NCBI GenBank assembly: GCA_000004695.1
Contig: CM000154.2
Coordinates: 928,001 to 992,000, forward strand
DNA: 64,000 bases
Reading direction: 5' to 3'
Origin: Dictyostelium discoideum
Lineage: Eukaryota
Shown: positions 49,719-63,631 of the stretch, piece after piece
Layout: every line of letters begins with the position of its first letter
Position numbering within the stretch: the first letter of the stretch is position 1
Notes under the pieces: model-generated
The model's input: only the letters and a program-made list of their open reading frames with translations
The model's database searches: none
Told to the model about the DNA's origin: nothing
Position numbers and translations under genes: made by a program

Positions 49719-50288
49719 ATGTTATCAGATTTTTTCAACAATTTAGCATCATTTTTTAGTAACATATTCTCATTATTTGAAGGTAAAAAACAAACAAGAA
49801 TATTAATGATTGGACTTGATGGTGCAGGTAAATCAACACTTTTATATAAATTAAAATTGGGTGATATTGTTTCAACCGTTCCAACGATTGGATTCAATGT
49901 TGAAACCATTGAATATAAAAATTTATCAATGACAGTTTGGGATGTAGGTGGTCAATATAAAATCCGTGCCTTATGGAAACACTATTACCATGGTACAAAC
50001 GCAATCATCTTTGTAGTAGATAGTACAGATCGTGAAAGAATGGATGAAGTTAAAGAAGAAATTGACACTCTTTTAATTCAAGAAGAATTAAAAGGTATAC
50101 AAATATTAATATTTGCAAATAAACAAGATATGAATAATGCAATGAATACATCAGAAATTGTAGACTCTTTAAATTTAAATTCAATTAAAGATAGAAAATG
50201 GTATGTTCAACCATGCAGTGCTATTAAATCACCACATGGCATCTATGAAGGATTTGATTGGGTTGCAAATTCACTCAATAATAAATAA
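49719..50288 (+). CDS. ADP-ribosylation factor (Arf)-like small GTPase lacking the N-myristoylation glycine (189 aa)
   Basis: [63 protein letters not shown]...IFANKQD...CSA is collinear with Arf1 (P-loop GLDxAGKT, DVGGQ, NKQD, SA). The N-terminus [13 protein letters not shown] has no Gly2. Confidence 0.85.
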
Positions 50289-50355: not shown

Positions 50356-51731
50356 TTATTTATTAATTTGTAAAATAGTTGATACACCATAATGATCACT
50401 TAATTGTGTGAATGGGAAACCTTGAATAAAGAATGGATCAACTTTTGTTGAACCTTTTAATGGAGATATGGAATTATGTTGTTGAGAGTGTTTTGAAGGT
50501 TGAGTAGGAGAAGGTACTTTAAAATTAAGTTCAACACCATCTATTGAAGTTTCGAATTCTCTATTGAATAATAAAATATAATCTAAACGTTTCATACAAC
50601 CGAAATCATTTGGATTTGTTAAAACCGTTTCTAATGGTATCTCTTGTTTTTTATCTTTTAAAAATTTGATATCACCAACTGTTGGAGGATGTTCACCATT
50701 GAAATCGTCTCTTAATAAATCTTGAATTGTGAAAATCTTTTTACCAGTTGGTAAATCTCTTTGATCGCTATTTGAGAGTAACTCCAACATTTGTAAATAG
50801 GAATCACCATCTTTTGGATCATCCTTTGAGACTCTACCATTTACATTTAAATCACCGGCTAAAATGATGATTGATTTATCTTTAAAAGTTTTTTCAAAGA
50901 TAAATTCACGTAATTGATTTAATTGAATTAATCTAATATTATCATTTTTATAATTGGATGCTTGGTCTTGAGTGGCGGAAGCTTTAACAGTTTTTGATCC
51001 ATCTGATTTTGGTGCGTAGGAAGCTTGCATATGGGTGGTAAAAAGGTGAATGAAATTCTCATCATCATTGGATGAACCAGTTGGAACTACCTTAATCTTT
51101 GTGTATAGCACACCCTTTGAGGAAAGCATATCGCTATCGACACCTTGTTCGTATAGGAAGAAATCAGAGGCCACAATTGGGTACTTTGAAATCACGGTTA
51201 AACCGCCATCAACCAAAAATGTTGAACGGAGATAAGGTGGTGATGGTGAGGTAGCGTAATATTGAAAACCCTGTTGCTCTGCTTTCTCTATGAATCTACG
51301 TTGACGATAACTAAATGCTGAAAATAACTCTTGTAAACAAATGATATCATATTGTGCTAAAATGGATTTCGATGGTGCTATACTTTGATAATCACTAGAG
51401 TTATTATGAAGATTTTGTTGTTTCAATGATGATGGTGGTGGTGGTGATTTGGCTTTCTTATTCATTCCAGTAACTTCCATTAATTTCCCATAGACTGGAT
51501 ATTTCCATGGTGAAAAGTATGGAATATATGGAAAACTGGTTTTATCTACACTATAAACTGCATTTGGAATACCTTGTGCACTCTTTGACCCTTTATTATA
51601 ATTTATATGTGGTGATAAACTATCTGATATTAAACATTCAATTCTTTCATCTTTCCAATCATTTTCATTATTTTTAATACCTGGTGGTCTAATAAATACA
51701 TTATATGTAAGTAATTTAATTGTTTTTGTCA

Positions 51732-51780
<49 letters not shown>

Positions 51781-52080
51781 TTGATGTTCTTGTTGTTTGA
51801 TTAGATTTGATGAATTTCCTTTAATACCTGTTACAGAGTTACTATCTATTTTATTATTATTATTATTATTATTATCACCACCTTTAACCCTATAAAATAA
51901 ATAATCAATGATAAATGTAAATGAATAATAATAAGAAGAATATGATGAAATATTTGAAGATGAGGTTTTATGTTGATCACTTATGTTAGTATTTAAATGA
52001 TTTAAAGTAATGGTTAAATATAAAACTAATGAAAAAATAGCAATGAAACAATAAATTAATTTATATGATATTAATTTCAT
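50356..52080 (-). CDS. Endonuclease/exonuclease/phosphatase (EEP)-family phosphodiesterase, neutral-sphingomyelinase-like, with N-terminal signal anchor (574 aa)
   Basis: EEP catalytic landmarks in order: LLTYNVF (N), YDIICLQELF (E), FTTHMQA (H), IILAGDLNVNG (D, N), QLSDHYGVS (D, H). N-terminus MKLISYKLIYCFIAIFSLVLYLTITL is hydrophobic. Contains poly-Asn from (AAT)n. Confidence 0.6.
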
Positions 52081-53450: not shown

Positions 53451-54062
53451 TTAAATGAATAAATAAGTGATTAAAATTAATAAAGTTAAAAAACTAAAAG
53501 TTAAAGATGAAGAAGAATTATTTGGATCAACACAAAGTGGATGAACTTTAAAGATTGAAGTTGTCATATTACAATAGTTTTTGAAAACTTGATTATCGGT
53601 AATGTTGCTTAATACTCCACCAATGATAGTTGGTCTATTCCAACCATCACCTAAACCATAACCATAGGCAGTGAGGAAAGTTGAATCGATTGGAACTTGA
53701 CTCATGCATTTATCACAATAGAGTGTTTTAATTGATGTACCATAAACAACCTTTGAAAATCCTGAATAAAGAATTGCACCTTGACACATTAAACATGATT
53801 CACCAGTTGTGTAAAGTGTATAATCTGAGAAATTGCTAATACCATATAATGCATTTGCCTTTTGAATTACAACAATCTCTGCATGTTGTGTTAAATCTTT
53901 CATTTGTCTTCCTAAATTCATATCGATAACAATTTGTGTACCATTCTTATGAACGATTGATGCTACAAATAATGCTCCCTTTTCTTTTGCAAAATCAATA
54001 ACTTGTTGCATATAACCTTGGTGATATGATAATTCATCTCCTGTAACAGCTGTTAGTGGTAC
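53451..54062 (-). CDS. CMP/dCMP-type zinc deaminase (TadA / guanine-deaminase-like), exon 2 of 2
   Basis: HAEIVVIQKA (HAE zinc ligand) and GESCLMCQGAILYSGFSKVVYG (CxxC zinc ligands) are present. Acceptor atatttag at 54063-54064, then VPLTAVTGDELSYHQGYMQQVIDFAKEKG. Confidence 0.75.
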   Translation of the reverse strand, partial: VPLTAVTGDELSYHQGYMQQVIDFAKEKGALFVASIVHKNGTQIVIDMNLGRQMKDLTQHAEIVVIQKANALYGISNFSDYTLYTTGESCLMCQGAILYSGFSKVVYGTSIKTLYCDKCMSQVPIDSTFLTAYGYGLGDGWNRPTIIGGVLSNITDNQVFKNYCNMTTSIFKVHPLCVDPNNSSSSLTFSFLTLLILITYLFI

Positions 54063-54194
54063 CTAAATATTAAAAATAAAAAAAAAATTTTAAAAAAATT
54101 AAAAAAAATAAAAAAAAAATTAGAAGTTAGAATTAAATAAAAAATTTAAATAAAAATAAAGTAAAATAAAATAAATTAAATTAAGGTTACTTAC

Positions 54195-54302
54195 TGGTAC
54201 TTGTTCTGGTGTTGAGTAATATGGGTTCATTCCATTTTCGCATGATAAAACTTTACCAACCAAGCATAAGGTTGCAAAGAATAAAACTAAATATTTGTTC
54301 AT
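54195..54302 (-). CDS. Deaminase, exon 1 of 2: signal peptide MNKYLVLFFATLCLVGKVLSCENGMNPYYSTPEQVP
   Basis: ATG at 54302 (the track ORF starts at an upstream in-frame ATG within A/T-rich low-complexity sequence). Classic h-region plus cleavage-site-like VLS|CE. Donor GTAAGT at 54194; phase 0. Confidence 0.65.
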
Positions 54303-55014: not shown

Positions 55015-55181
55015 TTAAATTCTGGAATCACTTTGTAAAAATTTATAAACTGAAAGTATTGATTTATCTATTTGTTCACCAACATTTTCACTCCTATTAT
55101 TAGAATTTATAGTAGTTATAGCATTTATAAATTTATTATTTTCTTTCTCAATTGCTTGAAATATATTTGAAATTTCTTTAT
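55015..55181 (-). CDS. Asn-rich hypothetical protein, exon 2 of 2
   Basis: Acceptor ttttttttttatag then AT+AAAGAAATT...; protein DKEISNIFQAIEKENNKFINAITTINSNNRSENVGEQIDKSILSVYKFLQSDSRI. Confidence 0.5.
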
Positions 55182-55269
55182 CTATAAAAAAAAAAAAATG
55201 ATTTGTTAATTTGTTTAAAAATAAAAAATAAAAAAATAAATAAAATAAAAACAAAAATTTTAATAATAC

Positions 55270-55954
55270 CACCAGTTAATAAGAATTGACAATCAGATAT
55301 TTTTAAATTATCAATTGAATTAAGTAATTTAATTTTTTCATTTTTTAAAAATAGTGAATCGATTATTGATTTTGGAGATTTTGATATTGATGGTTGATTG
55401 GATTCTTCTAAACATTTTATCATTATTTCAAAGGTTTCAGTTTGGCTAGAAGAGAATAAAAATTTAAAATTATAAAATAAATAATTCAATTGAAATTTAT
55501 TAAATTCTTTAATCTTTGAATTTCCATAAAGACTATTGTTATTATTAATGGTATCATTGTTATTAATTTTATTAGTACCAAAGGTTAATGTGTTACCAAT
55601 TAATGATTCTATAATAATAAAACCTTCATTTTTATTTAATTGATTATATTGATTAAATTGTTTAAGTTTTTTATCTAATTCAATTATTGAATTATTAATA
55701 TTATTATTATTATTATTATTGTTGTTGTTGTTATTGTTGCCGTAGTTGTTTATCTCTTGTATATCATTTGGTGATAAAATTATAAATGATAATTTATTTT
55801 GTTTAAATTCAAAATGAAAAGGTAAATTGCTAGTTTTCTTATTTGAATCATTATTTGAAACTTCGAAAAAACTATTTAATATTTGTTGATTGGATACACT
55901 TAAATTGGGTTTATTTAAAGTGATTTTATATCTAATTAATTTATTGTTTATCAT
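55270..55954 (-). CDS. Asn-rich hypothetical protein, exon 1 of 2 (about 283 aa in total)
   Basis: ATG at 55954. Donor GTATTA at 55269, phase 1 (an alternative GTGGTA donor 3 nt upstream is also possible). Confidence 0.5.
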
Positions 55955-57722: not shown

Positions 57723-57787
57723 GTAATGTATAAAATATTATTATTATAAATATATATATATATTTAAGTATGTAAAGTATTAGTTAC

Positions 57788-57904
<117 letters not shown>

Positions 57905-57919
57905 CATAAAAATTGACAG

Positions 57920-58786
57920 ATATACACGAGATAATAGAAGAATTAGAGGAATTATCATTGAAACCAGTTCCAAAAGAGAGAGAAACATTAATATTAAAAC
58001 AACAGCAACAACAATTGTTACAACAACAAGAACAAGCAGCAGCAGCAGCAGCGATACAATCACCACAAACAGTCTCAAAAATGAGTAAACTTAAATCTGG
58101 TTTATTTGGAAAGAGAAAAGAACTTACACAAAGTAACTCAACAACTCCAACAACACCCGCCACACCAACAGCAACACCAACATCATCTTCATTATCATTA
58201 CCAACACCTCCTCCACTACCACAACAACAACAACAGCAACAACAACAACAACAGCAAACTTTTAATGACCAAAGTAAATTAACAGCAACCACACCAACAC
58301 AACCAACACCAATTGAAGAAAAGAAACAACAATCATTTAAAACATTTTATCCAGCAGCACATAGCAATAATAGTAGTAATGGTAGCGATCATGGTGGAAA
58401 TGTTAATACAACAGGTGTATCACCATCATCACCAGGTGGTGGGGCTCATTCATTTGGTTCTTTATCTCAACATCGTTTGTCTTCTTCACTATCACTAAAA
58501 TCAATAAGTAGTGGTGGTGGTAATAGTAGTAGTAATCTAGTTGCTGATATAAATAATAATAATAATAGTGTAAATAAAGATAATAATACAACAATTAGTA
58601 GTAGCACAGTTACTACAAGTAATAGTATATCAGAATCAAATAATCAAGATAGTAAATTATTAGTTGCAACTACTACAACAACTACAACAACTACTACAAC
58701 AACTATTTTAGCAACAATACCAACTACCACAACAACCTCTACACCAACAACACCATCAACTGTTGGAGGAACCACACCATCACCAC

Positions 58787-58820
<34 letters not shown>

Positions 58821-60399
58821 TGTAATAACATCACCAATCAGTAGAATATCACCATCCAATATAACCTCACCATCGAAATTATCACAACAATCAACGCCAA
58901 GACAAAGACCTCTAACAATTGCACCAACAAAATTAAATATATCACAAGTTAGTAGTCCACAAAAGCCAAGATTAAAATATTTAAGAACAAGTTCAAAATC
59001 ATTAAGTATGGCATCATTACCAGCGGTTGGTCCAGATGGTACAATAATAGTTGATGGTGGTGCTAGTAGTGGAACGGAATCAACATCAATGACAAATCAT
59101 CATAGTTCATTTTTAAATCAATCAACTTTACCACTTGGTAGTTCACCAGTCCAAACTACACCACCATTATTATCAAATAGTATGAATAATAGTACAAATA
59201 ATTTACAATCATTACAACAACAGCAACAGCAACAACAACAACAACAACAACAACCAATAAGTGAAAATAATTATTATAAATATATGAAAGGATTATCATT
59301 ATTTAAAATAGCGACAGATTTAATAAATTATGATTTACCATTATGTTTAGAATGTACAAAATTAACAATTGGAGAATTAGAGGATGAAGGATCAATTTTG
59401 GACGGTGAAGTATCAATTTATAGTGCATATTTAAAACAATTAGAAAAAGGTAAAACTGAAGAAGATTTGGAGGAATTGGGTAAAGAGATGACATTACTAT
59501 GTGAAGAGGAGGAACAATTACGTTTAATGATTGAAAATACACATCAAGAGAGAAAAGAAGTTGAACAATTAACATTACAACTTCAAGATAGAATTGCAAC
59601 GTTGAAATCATTGGAAGATAGTTATTGGAGTTGTTTTAGTGAATTTCATTATGAAACTTTTAGAAATAAAGACGAGAGAGATCAAACCACCGTTCAAATT
59701 CAATGGGTTAATGACCATTTAGAAAGTTTAAAACAAACCAATATTCTCAATGATGCTTTCCATCTATGGCATGATGGTCATTTTGGTACTATAAATTCAT
59801 TACGTCTTGGAAAGTTACCAAGTCAACCAGTGGAATGGAACGAGATCAATGCAGCATGGGGTTTAGCAGTATCACTTTTGGATGCAATGGCAAAGAAGTT
59901 GAAATTTAAATTCCAACAATTCACATTGGTACCAAATGGTAGTTGTTCAAGAGTTGATAAAAGAGATGTTGATCCACCATTGGCCTATGAACTTTATGGT
60001 ACCAATGATATTAGTTTAGGTCGTTTATTTTGGTATAGACGTTTCGATAATGGTATGATTGCTTTCCTTCAATGCATTAAAGAACTATGTGAACATATCA
60101 CTGAAAAAGATCCAGAATTCTCTGTTCCCTACAAAATCGATAAAGAATATATAGGTGGAATGTGTATTAAATTACAATTCACAAATGATGATACTTGGAC
60201 AAAATCTTTGAAATTTATGTTAACAAACTTAAAATGGATCTTAATTTGGATTGTTAAAAATGAAACTTTAACTTTATTTAATAATCAACAATTTCAACAA
60301 TCAAAATTAAATAATAATCAAAATAATAATAATATTAATAATAATAATAATAATAATATTAATAATAATAATAATAATAATGTAAATAAAAGGAATTAA
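57920..60399 (+). CDS. atg6: Beclin-1/Atg6 homolog, exon 2 of 2 (about 855 aa in total). A long Q/S/T/N-rich low-complexity region is followed by the coiled-coil and BARA domains.
   Basis: The C-terminal 350 aa are collinear with human Beclin-1: [41 protein letters not shown] aligns with [41 protein letters not shown], and TWTKSLKFMLTNLKWIL with QWTKALKFMLTNLKWGL. Acceptor ttgacag at 57918-57919. Confidence 0.85.
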
Positions 60400-60437: not shown

Positions 60438-61793
60438 TTAAGATTTTTCAATTGTAAATAATTTTGAATCATTACTAAAATTATTAATTTGATTAAAAGA
60501 ATTTGATGGTATATAGATTGTAGTTCTAAAGAATTTTTTATCATTTTTAAAATCATAATCAAAACAAATTATATTAACATTATAAGATGCAATACAAGGT
60601 GCTTTAATTGTAAAAGGTTTAATACCATCGAATGAGATTTTATTATAATCAAAACTTGTCCAATTTGAAATGTTTGTAATTGTTGGTACTTGTTTACCTA
60701 AATAATTTAATGGCAATTCTTTAAGAGTTTGCATTTTATTATGCCATGTTATTGTTTTAAAAAAATTATCATTTGTAAATTCTGAAACATCTTTACGATT
60801 GATTTTAGCCAATTCTAAAATTGATTTATTTTTAATATCTGATACTTTAAATAAAAGATTTTGTTGGAATCCAAAATTACCAATATGCTCTTCACTTAAA
60901 TTACAACGTTTTCTCATATTACATGTATATCTTAATCTAAACTCTTCGTCATCTGAAATCGATTCATTCATTGATAATATTTTAATAATAATTGAATGAA
61001 TTATATCATTTGTTGATAAATAGCAATCAGTTATTATTGATTTAATTAAATTTTCAATTTCAATTAAATTAAAATTAACTTTAATTGTAATATTTTCAAT
61101 TTTTGGTTTTTCGCTACTTGTATCATCACCACTACTACTTCCAAATGGGGTATAGGTATATCCTAAAAATTGTTTACCGTAATCACGAAAATTTTGTAAA
61201 TCTGTTAATGATGGTTGATCCCTATCATAAAAATCTTGACCATTAATTATTATTGGTTTCTTTAATGTTACTTTTTCATTTTCACCATTGTTTGAATAAA
61301 TCATTGAAAGATATTTAAAGAAATAGTACATACTACTTTGATCAAATAATGAATGATTAATACTATATCCAATTACAAAACCATCTTTTAATATGGTTAA
61401 TTTAAATGAACCCATTGGTAATCCTTCTAAATCAAAAGAGAATCCATTTTTCATTCTTTCATCAAGTAATTTCATTGGTATAATTGATTCTAATGTTGTT
61501 GTTTCAATTAATTCATTTTCTCTATTTTCAATTTCCAATTGATCATTAACTTTGTGATGTGATTTTGGTGGGTAACTAATGCACCAAATTCCATTTTCAG
61601 AGTGAAATGTTGATAGTAAAACTGGGAACTCATCGAATACTTGCTCCATTGATTTTAAGAATTTCTCTAAATCAATCTCTCCTTTAAAGAAATAACCACC
61701 TCTTGAGAAAACTGTATGTGCTGCATAATCTAACCCATCAAATTTCTTATAAAAAATATTATTTGATTTAAATAATTTTGAAGTATCTGTCAT
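60438..61793 (-). CDS. HxxxD-motif acyltransferase (chloramphenicol-acetyltransferase-like / BAHD-condensation superfamily), 451 aa from the first ATG at 61793
   Basis: GFVIGYSINHSLFDQSSMYYF contains the catalytic HxxxD. The protein is about 450 aa with no low-complexity tracts. The track ORF starts at an upstream alternative TTG at 61865. Confidence 0.5.
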   Translation of the reverse strand: MTDTSKLFKSNNIFYKKFDGLDYAAHTVFSRGGYFFKGEIDLEKFLKSMEQVFDEFPVLLSTFHSENGIWCISYPPKSHHKVNDQLEIENRENELIETTTLESIIPMKLLDERMKNGFSFDLEGLPMGSFKLTILKDGFVIGYSINHSLFDQSSMYYFFKYLSMIYSNNGENEKVTLKKPIIINGQDFYDRDQPSLTDLQNFRDYGKQFLGYTYTPFGSSSGDDTSSEKPKIENITIKVNFNLIEIENLIKSIITDCYLSTNDIIHSIIIKILSMNESISDDEEFRLRYTCNMRKRCNLSEEHIGNFGFQQNLLFKVSDIKNKSILELAKINRKDVSEFTNDNFFKTITWHNKMQTLKELPLNYLGKQVPTITNISNWTSFDYNKISFDGIKPFTIKAPCIASYNVNIICFDYDFKNDKKFFRTTIYIPSNSFNQINNFSNDSKLFTIEKS

Positions 61794-61847
61794 TTTTAAA
61801 GTTTTTATAATGAAATCTGATTTTTGAAAAAAATATTTTTTTTTTTG

Positions 61848-61866
61848 AAATAAGCAACAAAACAAA

Positions 61867-62247: not shown

Positions 62248-63631
62248 TTATTTTTTATTTAAAATAGAGTTTACTACATTTAAAACTTGACCAGATCTAA
62301 TTAATTTATAAACTTCTTCTATATCTGGTTGTATGAATCTATCTTTATCCATAAAAGTAACTTTTGAACGTACTAATTGATAGACTGCTTCTAATGGTTC
62401 AGTGGTTTTTAAAGGTCTTCTAAAATCCAAACCTTGACAAGCTGCTAATAATTCGATTGCTAAAACATTTTCAACATTTTCAACAACATTTAAACATTTA
62501 CGAGCAGACCAACCACCCATTGAAACGTGATCTTCTTTTGCACTACTTGTGCTAATGGTATCTGCAGAAGAAGGATGAACCAAAACTTTATTTTCACTTA
62601 CCAAAGCAGCACTTGTACAATGAGCAATCATGAAACCTGAATTTAAACCACCACCATTTACCAAAAATGATGGAAGACCATCACTCAATTGTGAATTTAC
62701 CAAACGTTCTAAACGACGTTCACTAATATTTGAAAGTTCATGAATACCAATTGTAAGGTAATCCAATGCCTTTGCAGGATACTCACCATGGAAGTTACCA
62801 CCACTAATTGTGCCACATAATTCATCAGTGTCGAAAACCATTGGATTATCAGTTGCAGAGTTCATCTCGGTGTTTATAATTCCCTGAACGAAATCAATGG
62901 TATCGAAAACGATACCATGAACTTGTGGTACACAACGTAATGTATAACTATCTTGAACTTTCTTTGTATCTTTATTTGCCAATGTAATCTCTGATGGATA
63001 TTGGTCACTATGAAGTACTGATCTTAAGAATGCTGCAACCCTACCTTGACCTGAATGTGGTCTGGCGGCATGGATCAATGGATGGTAGGCGGCAGTCAAA
63101 CCTTTTAAAGCTTCAAATGTCATTGCTGTTATAATATTGGCAGTCTCTGCCAATACCTTACAACGATAAACTGCCTCTGCACCCAATGAAGTAATCAATT
63201 GTGTACCATTAATCAATGCAAGACCTTCCTTTGCGTTCAATTCAATTGGTGTTAAATTTTGTCTCTTTAAAATTTCATTGGCTGGTGAGAATTTAAAGTT
63301 TCTATACTCTAAAACATCGACATCCAAGTTACTGGTGAATGTATTTCCACTGTCGCCAAAATCATACATCTTACCCTCACCCATCATACCCAATGCTAAA
63401 TGTGATAATGGTGCTAAATCTCCAGATGCTCCAACTGTTCCTTTCTCTGGAACCAATGGTAAACAATTACCATTCAATATTTTAATTGCTCTCTTTACTG
63501 TCTCTAATGTAATACCACTGTATCCTTTTGTTAATACATTAATTCTTAATGCTAATAACATTCTAGTTCTTTCTGGTGTTAATGGTGTACCAACACCTGA
63601 TGAATGTGATCTAATTAAATTAACTTGTAAC
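62248..63631 (-). CDS. Histidine ammonia-lyase (HAL/PAL aromatic amino acid lyase family), exon 2 of 2
   Basis: [25 protein letters not shown] contains the Ala-Ser-Gly MIO-forming triad. The protein is collinear with human HAL ([90 protein letters not shown]). Acceptor ttaatag at 63632-63634. Confidence 0.85.

Follow-up and report, generated by a model that had tools for sequence, protein, structure and literature searches.

Folate chemotaxis in Dictyostelium, like the gradients that its cells generate themselves, is a widely used model, and the attractant-degrading enzyme at the centre of both has no gene. Consequently, the folate deaminase cannot be knocked out, tagged or tuned. The enzyme has been described as both secreted and cell-surface, with a molecular weight of about 40,000, and methotrexate is reportedly resistant to it. 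Its activity has been known since 1978-81, and as of 2021 it was "identified biochemically but is yet to be cloned". In literature searches aimed at folate and pterin, no cloning paper for a folate or pterin deaminase after 2021 was found. Pterin deaminase activity has been reported in Polysphondylium violaceum, Dictyostelium discoideum and D. lacteum, and the acrasin (aggregation attractant) of Tieghemostelium lacteum is a pterin. Here we analyse the gene DDB_G0288019 of D. discoideum, which lies in a stretch of 64,000 nucleotides (GenBank assembly GCA_000004695.1, contig CM000154.2, positions 928,001 to 992,000 of the forward strand; hereafter, the window, to which all positions refer).

DDB_G0288019 is already annotated, by domain alone, and its homology-derived function label is misleading. 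No published characterisation of the gene or its family was found. Its product is probably a free-base deaminase of the cytidine deaminase (CDA) fold that has been turned into a disulfide-bonded ecto-enzyme with a glycosylphosphatidylinositol (GPI) anchor. The explanation that best accounts for the data is a surface-exported, probably GPI-anchored CDA-fold aminohydrolase whose likeliest substrates are folate and pterin; we give this reading a probability of about 0.6 and treat its choice of substrate as a hypothesis. The previously undescribed clade to which the protein belongs, one of exported CDA-fold deaminases common to dictyostelids, other eukaryotes and bacteria, is new.

Gene structure, export signals and deaminase core

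DDB_G0288019 has two exons on the minus strand, 54302..54195 and 54062..53451, with the start codon ATG at 54302..54300. Exon 1 (54195..54302, 108 nucleotides, codons 1-36, phase 0) supplies the start codon, the signal peptide and the first mature residues, whereas exon 2 (53451..54062, 612 nucleotides) supplies codons 37-239 plus the TAA stop. The phase 0 intron on the same strand (54063..54194, 132 nucleotides, GTAAGT...TAG) has a GC content of 6.8% versus 30-32% in the exons, and reading through it meets a stop codon inside it. Every residue of the joined 239-residue product is identical to XP_636940.1 (EAL63435.1; UniProt Q54JJ1) of D. discoideum AX4. The coordinates, motifs, 54195/54062 junction and in-phase splice proposed in an earlier sequence-only reading of this locus, made by a model from the letters alone, are therefore correct. 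Exon 1 is needed because exon 2 has no in-frame ATG before Met54, yet the conserved residues E46 and H50, together with helix 1 (residues 44-64), lie upstream of that codon. Exon 1 is also conserved in orthologues. A start at Met54, which would yield a cytosolic product of 186 residues, was considered and is ruled out by these upstream helix-1 residues and by N-termini that are collinear across the family. A tblastn search found no tandem paralogue of the gene in the window.

By hydropathy and the -3/-1 rule, the first 20 residues, MNKYLVLFFATLCLVGKVLS (54243..54302, minus strand), form a signal peptide whose cleavage is predicted before Cys21. Position 3 is Lys, and residues 5-15 form an h-region of mean Kyte-Doolittle hydropathy 2.98; Val stands at -3 and Ser at -1. 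A MicroPublication of 2026 places DDB_G0288019 among 21 transcripts with a Sec/SPI signal-peptide probability above 95%, in agreement with the signal peptide that the sequence-only reading had seen in exon 1. The same study reports that the mRNA goes down under endoplasmic reticulum (ER) stress in an IreA-dependent manner, which is the behaviour expected of an ER-targeted message. It also repeats the database label "tRNA inosine editing" for this gene. Because the protein leaves the cytosol, this label does not fit, and for an exported protein it is implausible. Export is a family trait as well, given that every complete dictyostelid homologue read has a hydrophobic, signal-like N-terminal region.

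The C-terminus carries a second predicted targeting signal. After Cys213 the chain continues V-D-P-N-N-S-S-S-S-LTFSFLTLLILITYLFI and stops, so that its tail is 17 mostly hydrophobic residues with a mean hydropathy of 2.72 over the last 13 and no residue beyond. In GPI-attachment signals, small residues around the omega site are followed by a short spacer and some 12-20 hydrophobic residues that run up to the last residue. The segment at residues 217-239 (53454..53522, minus strand), N-N-S-S-S-S and then the hydrophobic tail up to the stop, is laid out in this way and is a predicted GPI-attachment signal. Equally hydrophobic tails of divergent sequence, each preceded by a Ser/Asn/Ala/Gly-rich stretch, are found in half of the 22 dictyostelid homologues read whose C-terminus is complete; the remaining 11 have a polar end or a C-terminal module of another kind. 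A C-terminal transmembrane anchor is less likely: the hydrophobic stretch, only about 13-17 residues long and terminal with no cytoplasmic residue, is too short and too terminal for a typical one. DDB_G0288019 is thus probably GPI-anchored at the outer face of the plasma membrane and not freely secreted.

Between the two signals lies a CDA-fold deaminase domain (approximately residues 44-196; 53583..54041, minus strand). The zinc site can be read directly in the DNA. H96-A97-E98 (53877..53885, minus strand), which provides a zinc ligand and the catalytic glutamate, aligns with H53 and E55 of the Bacillus subtilis guanine deaminase (bGD), and C126-L-M-C129 (53784..53795, minus strand), which provides the two cysteine ligands, aligns with C83 and C86 of the same enzyme. 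In its context, E-S-C-L-M-C, Ser replaces the usual Pro before C126, as it does in 14 of 27 family members. E98 is kept in all 27 dictyostelid members and H96 in 26 of them. Residues 50-145 match the zinc-binding cytidine/deoxycytidylate deaminase family PF00383 with 57.5 bits (cut-off 25). The intact HAE...CxxC core described by the sequence-only reading is thereby borne out.

The predicted structure agrees with this assignment. The protein has the three-layer alpha/beta/alpha deaminase fold, and in its AlphaFold2 model the predicted local distance difference test (pLDDT) score exceeds 90 over residues 40-150. A single-sequence search of the PDB returns TadA first (2e-9), followed by guanine, cytosine and guanosine deaminases, and TadA is also the top Foldseek match. 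When the PDB is searched with a profile of the 27-member family, B. subtilis guanine deaminase comes first (2.7e-19), just before TadA. The resemblance to TadA and to guanine and guanosine deaminases, which had been suggested from the letters, is therefore seen in PDB, profile and Foldseek matches alike. Together, these features suggest a catalytically competent zinc aminohydrolase of the CDA fold, in the same subgroup as guanine, guanosine and cytosine deaminases and TadA.

An exported deaminase family in dictyostelids and beyond

A profile search of 1.84 billion representative proteins gave 17 matches at or below 1e-30, and all top matches with an organism name in their source are dictyostelid. 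Members of the family occur in Cavenderia fasciculata, Acytostelium subglobosum (two copies), Synstelium polycarpum (three copies), Polysphondylium violaceum, D. purpureum, D. firmibasis, D. citrinum and D. dimigraforme. Tieghemostelium lacteum has four copies that are more than 90% identical (KYQ90026, KYQ90027, KYQ90028 and KYQ89053) plus another paralogue. Three of these four have consecutive accession numbers and lie on one 2.03-Mb contig. The four copies could represent the amplification, perhaps in tandem, of an attractant-degrading enzyme. In a rough neighbour-joining tree without bootstrap, all dictyostelid proteins form one clade with bGD and TadA outside it. Signal-peptide-bearing, eukaryote-like metagenomic proteins are sister to the dictyostelid clade, and bacterial proteins follow.

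Four architectures are found in the family: a GPI type, to which DDB_G0288019 belongs, a soluble secreted type, a type with an extra C-terminal module, and a pseudoenzyme. The soluble proteins are about 225-242 residues long and have three paralogues in D. firmibasis. Group-4 species combine one GPI-type member with several soluble ones. The modular type is exemplified by P0045 of Cavenderia. A second D. discoideum protein, DDB_G0282255 (Q54SS3), is annotated with a CBM49 carbohydrate- or cellulose-binding module and a CMP/dCMP deaminase domain; its place in the family is suggested by this annotation and by the similar architecture of P0045. With its abundance in fruiting bodies, the module would fit a deaminase bound to cellulose in the matrix of the sorus or stalk. 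In the pseudoenzyme branch (P0184, P0048, P0049 and P0050, from the D. discoideum group and D. purpureum), proteins of about 420 residues have lost both cysteine zinc ligands, with E-P-D-S-L-S-S in place of E-S-C-x-x-C. They keep the signal peptide, the H-S-E motif and the family cysteines, and end in a low-complexity Ser/Lys/His-rich tail of about 200 residues. They appear to be secreted pseudo-deaminases, perhaps with a binding function.

Additional cysteines mark the dictyostelid proteins. C152 and C155 are present in 27 of 27 sequences, C200 and C213 in 26 of 26, and C21 in 25 of 27, and all five are largely missing from bacterial relatives. A further pair, C81 and C105, co-varies: both residues occur in 31 sequences and neither in 15, while C105 stands alone in six and C81 alone in none. 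The GPI-type proteins of D. discoideum and D. firmibasis have lost both together. N-glycosylation sequons are kept at positions 76 (19 of 27) and 104 (25 of 27), and the tripeptide N-C-S/T at 104-106 is at once a sequon and the site of Cys105. The mature DDB_G0288019 chain of 21.7 kDa has four to six sequons. DDB_G0288019 is probably exposed to an oxidising compartment in which disulfides and N-glycans are formed; for the disulfides, this is suggested by conservation and co-variation.

The relatives of the family share its extracytoplasmic character. Of the 100 top relatives in which an HxE motif can be recognised, 55 look exported, with an N-terminal extension and a hydrophobic core, and 11 of these 55 have an RR motif like that of twin-arginine translocation (Tat) signals, for example "MKSTRRQFVF...". 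The nearest sequence neighbourhood of DDB_G0288019, bacterial relatives included, thus appears mostly extracytoplasmic, and the expectation of the sequence-only reading that such deaminases are normally cytosolic is wrong for this clade. The extracellular role that it had called conceivable is likely, given the export signal. The GPI-like C-terminus, the pan-dictyostelid family with its disulfide-type cysteines, the exported bacterial relatives and the candidacy for folate/pterin deaminase are features that it did not note.

The gene neighbourhoods of three bacterial homologues (P0008, P0019 and P0188) hold DUF2165, acyl-CoA dehydrogenases, leucine-rich repeat proteins and giant open reading frames (ORFs); no purine, pterin or folate pathway genes were found beside them, and they give no hint of the substrate. 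In P0008, which has a Tat-like signal, the deaminase gene begins 3 nucleotides past a DUF2165 gene on two independent contigs (L001:7459-8558; L002:2-1107). The two genes are possibly co-transcribed. DUF2165 is a family of small membrane proteins.

Candidate substrates and competing roles

DDB_G0288019 most likely works at the cell surface, as an aminohydrolase whose substrate is a small extracellular amino-heterocycle. The protein would enter the ER through its cleavable signal peptide and exchange its C-terminal hydrophobic peptide for a GPI anchor. This would turn the active site to the medium at the outer face of the plasma membrane or, after endocytic or phagocytic uptake, to the lumen. 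There, zinc-bound water activated by Glu98 would replace an exocyclic amino group with a carbonyl and free ammonia. The likeliest specific substrates would be 2-amino-4-oxo-pteridines, that is, folate and pterin. DDB_G0288019 would then be a membrane-bound folate/pterin deaminase that inactivates a vegetative chemoattractant, and its soluble paralogues would be the extracellular enzyme.

Several observations are consistent with such a substrate. The 2-amino-4-oxo pteridine ring is the ring attacked by guanine deaminases and RibD. F68, N85 and Y135 align with F26, N42 and W92 of bGD; of the 27 family members, 25 carry Trp at position 135. In TadA, Val and His stand where DDB_G0288019 has F68 and Y135. 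The three bGD residues line the base pocket and serve in stacking and recognition, roles that were reportedly treated by Liaw and colleagues in 2004. The first 110 residues of the bGD sequence used for the comparison agree with the 1WKQ alignment. The pocket looks like the free-base type, with a recognition residue unlike that of guanine deaminase.

The distribution and make-up of the family fit as well. Family members occur in all three species with reported pterin deaminase activity, the amplified copies are those of T. lacteum with its pterin acrasin, and the presence of one lipid-anchored and several soluble members could mirror the division of that activity into membrane-bound and extracellular forms. 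Homodimers are usual in this deaminase clade. The mature chain fits the activity of about 40 kDa only as a dimer (about 43 kDa) or if heavily glycosylated. We rate the chance that the folate/pterin deaminase is to be found within the family a little short of even. That DDB_G0288019 itself acts on folate or pterin, and is thus the orphan cell-surface deaminase, is a more tentative hypothesis. Nucleobase or nucleoside salvage is slightly less probable, and the remaining weight lies on other small amino-heterocycles or on a role specific to the sorus.

Another set of observations weighs against this reading. The GPI anchor is predicted from sequence heuristics, and the folate or pterin substrate is hypothetical. 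In the AlphaFold2 model, pLDDT is low (52-67) at residues 150-180 and 200-239. D114 of bGD, in the GFDD motif, aligns with Gln158 (by MAFFT only, a less certain alignment), and Gln stands at this position in 20 of 27 family members and in most of the clade, bacterial members included. Because D114 is replaced in this way, substrate recognition would differ from that of guanine deaminase. Y156 of bGD, a C-terminal residue that closes the pocket, has no aligned counterpart in DDB_G0288019 (again by MAFFT only, and less certain). In the literature reviewed, every pterin deaminase that has been placed in a protein family is an enzyme of the amidohydrolase superfamily and not one of the CDA fold. 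The titles of Wurster (1981) and Bernstein (1981) imply that the deaminase is regulated by folate. DDB_G0288019 is absent from the 27 genes that change at least four-fold after 4 h in 1 mM folate in one RNA-seq data set; those genes include pdsA and several grl receptors. Its transcript is moderate in axenic cells (about 3.7 log2 counts per million, CPM). After 4 h with bacteria it decreases, with a log2 fold change of -1.94 with Klebsiella pneumoniae and -2.89 with B. subtilis, a four- to seven-fold drop. In a developmental RNA-seq study of 2015, the gene is among those that go up gradually at 24 h. Finally, both DDB_G0288019 and DDB_G0282255 are present in fruiting bodies, which suggests another role in the sorus, either beside the one considered here or in its place.

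These observations bear differently on the alternatives. An extracellular or endo-lysosomal deaminase of nucleobases or nucleosides (guanine, guanosine, cytosine or similar), serving salvage or nitrogen recovery from digested bacteria and having no signalling role, is the foremost of them, although we consider it unlikely. It would suit the closest solved relatives, which act on guanine, guanosine, cytosine or ammeline, and the conserved counterparts of F26, N42 and W92; a GPI-anchored surface protein would enter phagosomes, and the transcript responds to bacteria and not, at the four-fold level, to folate. However, a decrease upon bacterial contact is odd for a digestive enzyme, and the guanine-binding Asp has become Gln in most of the family. 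D. discoideum already has an annotated guanine deaminase, guaD, and no extracellular guanine or cytosine deaminase activity in Dictyostelium was found in searches that were aimed at folate and pterin. Scavenging or defence, which the sequence-only reading had called conceivable, is possible but is not the best-motivated hypothesis. A main role in the fruiting body or spore mass is improbable. In this case, the enzyme would destroy or make a signal molecule, or make ammonia, for spore dormancy or germination, together with the cellulose-anchored DDB_G0282255. A life-cycle proteome measured by mass spectrometry in 2026 detects DDB_G0288019 in vegetative cells and fruiting bodies, with log2 stage-versus-rest values of +3.5 and +3.7, respectively, and negative values at the stages between. 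The fruiting-body value and the rise of the transcript at 24 h favour such a role. DDB_G0282255, whose mRNA reaches about 10 log2 CPM in growing cells, is among the proteins most enriched in fruiting bodies, with an intensity of about 9e7. The equal enrichment in vegetative cells, however, speaks against a purely developmental function, many growth-phase genes are re-expressed in spores before germination, and no candidate substrate is supported by the present data.

Two further explanations concern the origin and location of the protein, and both are very improbable. The sequence-only reading had related DDB_G0288019 to deaminases of bacterial polymorphic toxins, which would make it a secreted nucleic-acid deaminase used in defence against bacteria or competitors. 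The protein is exported, and it matches the toxin family PF14437 (MafB19-deam) at 54.7 bits against a cut-off of 27. This match lacks specificity, for the model gives higher scores to B. subtilis guanine deaminase (88 bits), to a TadA-like protein (134) and to yeast cytosine deaminase (69). The 239 residues are accounted for by a signal peptide, a deaminase and a GPI-like tail, with no delivery or pretoxin domain. No adjacent immunity gene was recognised, the neighbours being a gene of the endonuclease/exonuclease/phosphatase (EEP) family, an ORF without a Pfam match and atg6B. Nor was structural closeness to solved toxin deaminases found. The kinship is not supported, and Iyer et al. (2011) make no mention of Dictyostelium. 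Least probable of all is a cytosolic tRNA adenosine-34 deaminase whose signal peptide is an artefact of the gene model. The place of TadA as the top single-sequence PDB match and the tRNA-editing association repeated in the recent paper speak for it, but the score against the NCBIfam TadA equivalog NF008113 is 46.1 bits where the cut-off is 150. Moreover, exon 1, which is conserved in orthologues, must supply the start codon. The family as a whole is marked by signal peptides, conserved extra cysteines and GPI-like tails, and the mRNA behaves as ER-targeted.

Genomic surroundings, significance and comparison with known systems

DDB_G0288019 lies two genes from an Apg6/Beclin gene, atg6B, at 57913-60399 (plus strand). 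The N-terminal extension of this gene is long and contains much poly-Q, poly-T and poly-S, and its simple repeats yield spurious poly-Leu, poly-Ile and poly-Cys ORFs on the opposite strand (57764-58292, minus). Between the two lies an ORF of 258 residues (55178-55954, minus) with poly-Asn tracts, a hydrophobic C-terminal stretch and no Pfam match. Directly downstream of DDB_G0288019, an ORF of 574 residues (50356-52080, minus) combines a hydrophobic N-terminal segment with poly-Asn tracts and a domain of the endonuclease/exonuclease/phosphatase family (PF03372, 4.7e-8), and may be a neutral-sphingomyelinase-like or phosphatase enzyme. Further away, an intronless ORF of 189 residues (49719-50288, plus) encodes a small GTPase of the Arf family (PF00025, 4.8e-70); a short, probably spurious ORF on the opposite strand overlaps its 5' end. 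On the other side, an ORF of the BAHD-type acyltransferase family (60438-61865, minus; PF02458, 4.6e-10) adjoins an aromatic amino acid (histidine/phenylalanine) ammonia-lyase ORF (62248-63561, minus; PF00221, 5e-147). The lyase probably has an upstream exon because its model match starts at position 90. The acyltransferase and lyase genes could belong to one secondary-metabolite pathway.

DDB_G0288019 and its paralogues form a short, concrete list of candidates for a forty-year-old orphan activity; the presumed active paralogues in D. discoideum include DDB_G0282255, DDB_G0286161 and the orthologues of P0204, P0205 and P0207. If the folate/pterin assignment is true, self-made folate gradients would depend on a GPI-anchored CDA-fold deaminase. 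Pteridine deamination would also gain a new class of enzyme, because in the literature reviewed the pterin deaminases are amidohydrolases, and the amplified copies of T. lacteum would be its "acrasinase". Whatever the substrate, the misleading annotation of "tRNA inosine editing" is corrected, and an uncharacterised clade of extracytoplasmic CDA-fold deaminases is defined that spans dictyostelids, other eukaryotes and Tat- or Sec-exporting bacteria. The fold of the base editor TadA would gain an extracellular, disulfide-stabilised scaffold.

The systems closest in fold differ from DDB_G0288019 chiefly in their location. CDA-fold guanine and guanosine deaminases, such as B. subtilis GuaD (1WKQ/1TIY), Arabidopsis GSDA (7DBF) and Nitrosomonas NE0047 (2G84), are enzymes of the cytosol that lack a signal peptide, the extra cysteines and a lipid-anchor signal. 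In contrast to bGD, the stretch between strands 4 and 5 of DDB_G0288019 bears the family-specific motif C-x-x-C...Q-[IV]-P-I-D-S. The tRNA adenosine-34 deaminases TadA and ADAT2 have the same domain size and zinc site as DDB_G0288019. However, an exported protein has no access to tRNA, and Phe at position 68 and Trp or Tyr at 135 stand where TadA has Val and His. The nearest non-eukaryotic relatives, the Tat- or Sec-exported bacterial "nucleoside deaminase" homologues (for example P0008, P0054 and P0063), are likewise extracytoplasmic. They share with DDB_G0288019 the motifs LYTTGE[SP]CPMC and VVYGTSI...G..Q[IL]..., including Gln for D114 of bGD, but they have neither the eukaryote-type cysteines nor the GPI tail, and they are uncharacterised.

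The systems closest in presumed function come from Dictyostelium itself. Its folate and pterin deaminases are biochemical activities, whereas the DDB_G0288019 family is known here from sequence; the reaction class and the predicted location, at the surface and in soluble paralogues, match between the two. Under the folate/pterin hypothesis, a functional analogue would be PdsA, the secreted and membrane-bound cyclic AMP phosphodiesterase, whose role is experimentally established. Its fold and chemistry are unrelated to those of DDB_G0288019. Nevertheless, each enzyme would destroy a chemoattractant and thereby sharpen or self-generate the gradients that cells follow.

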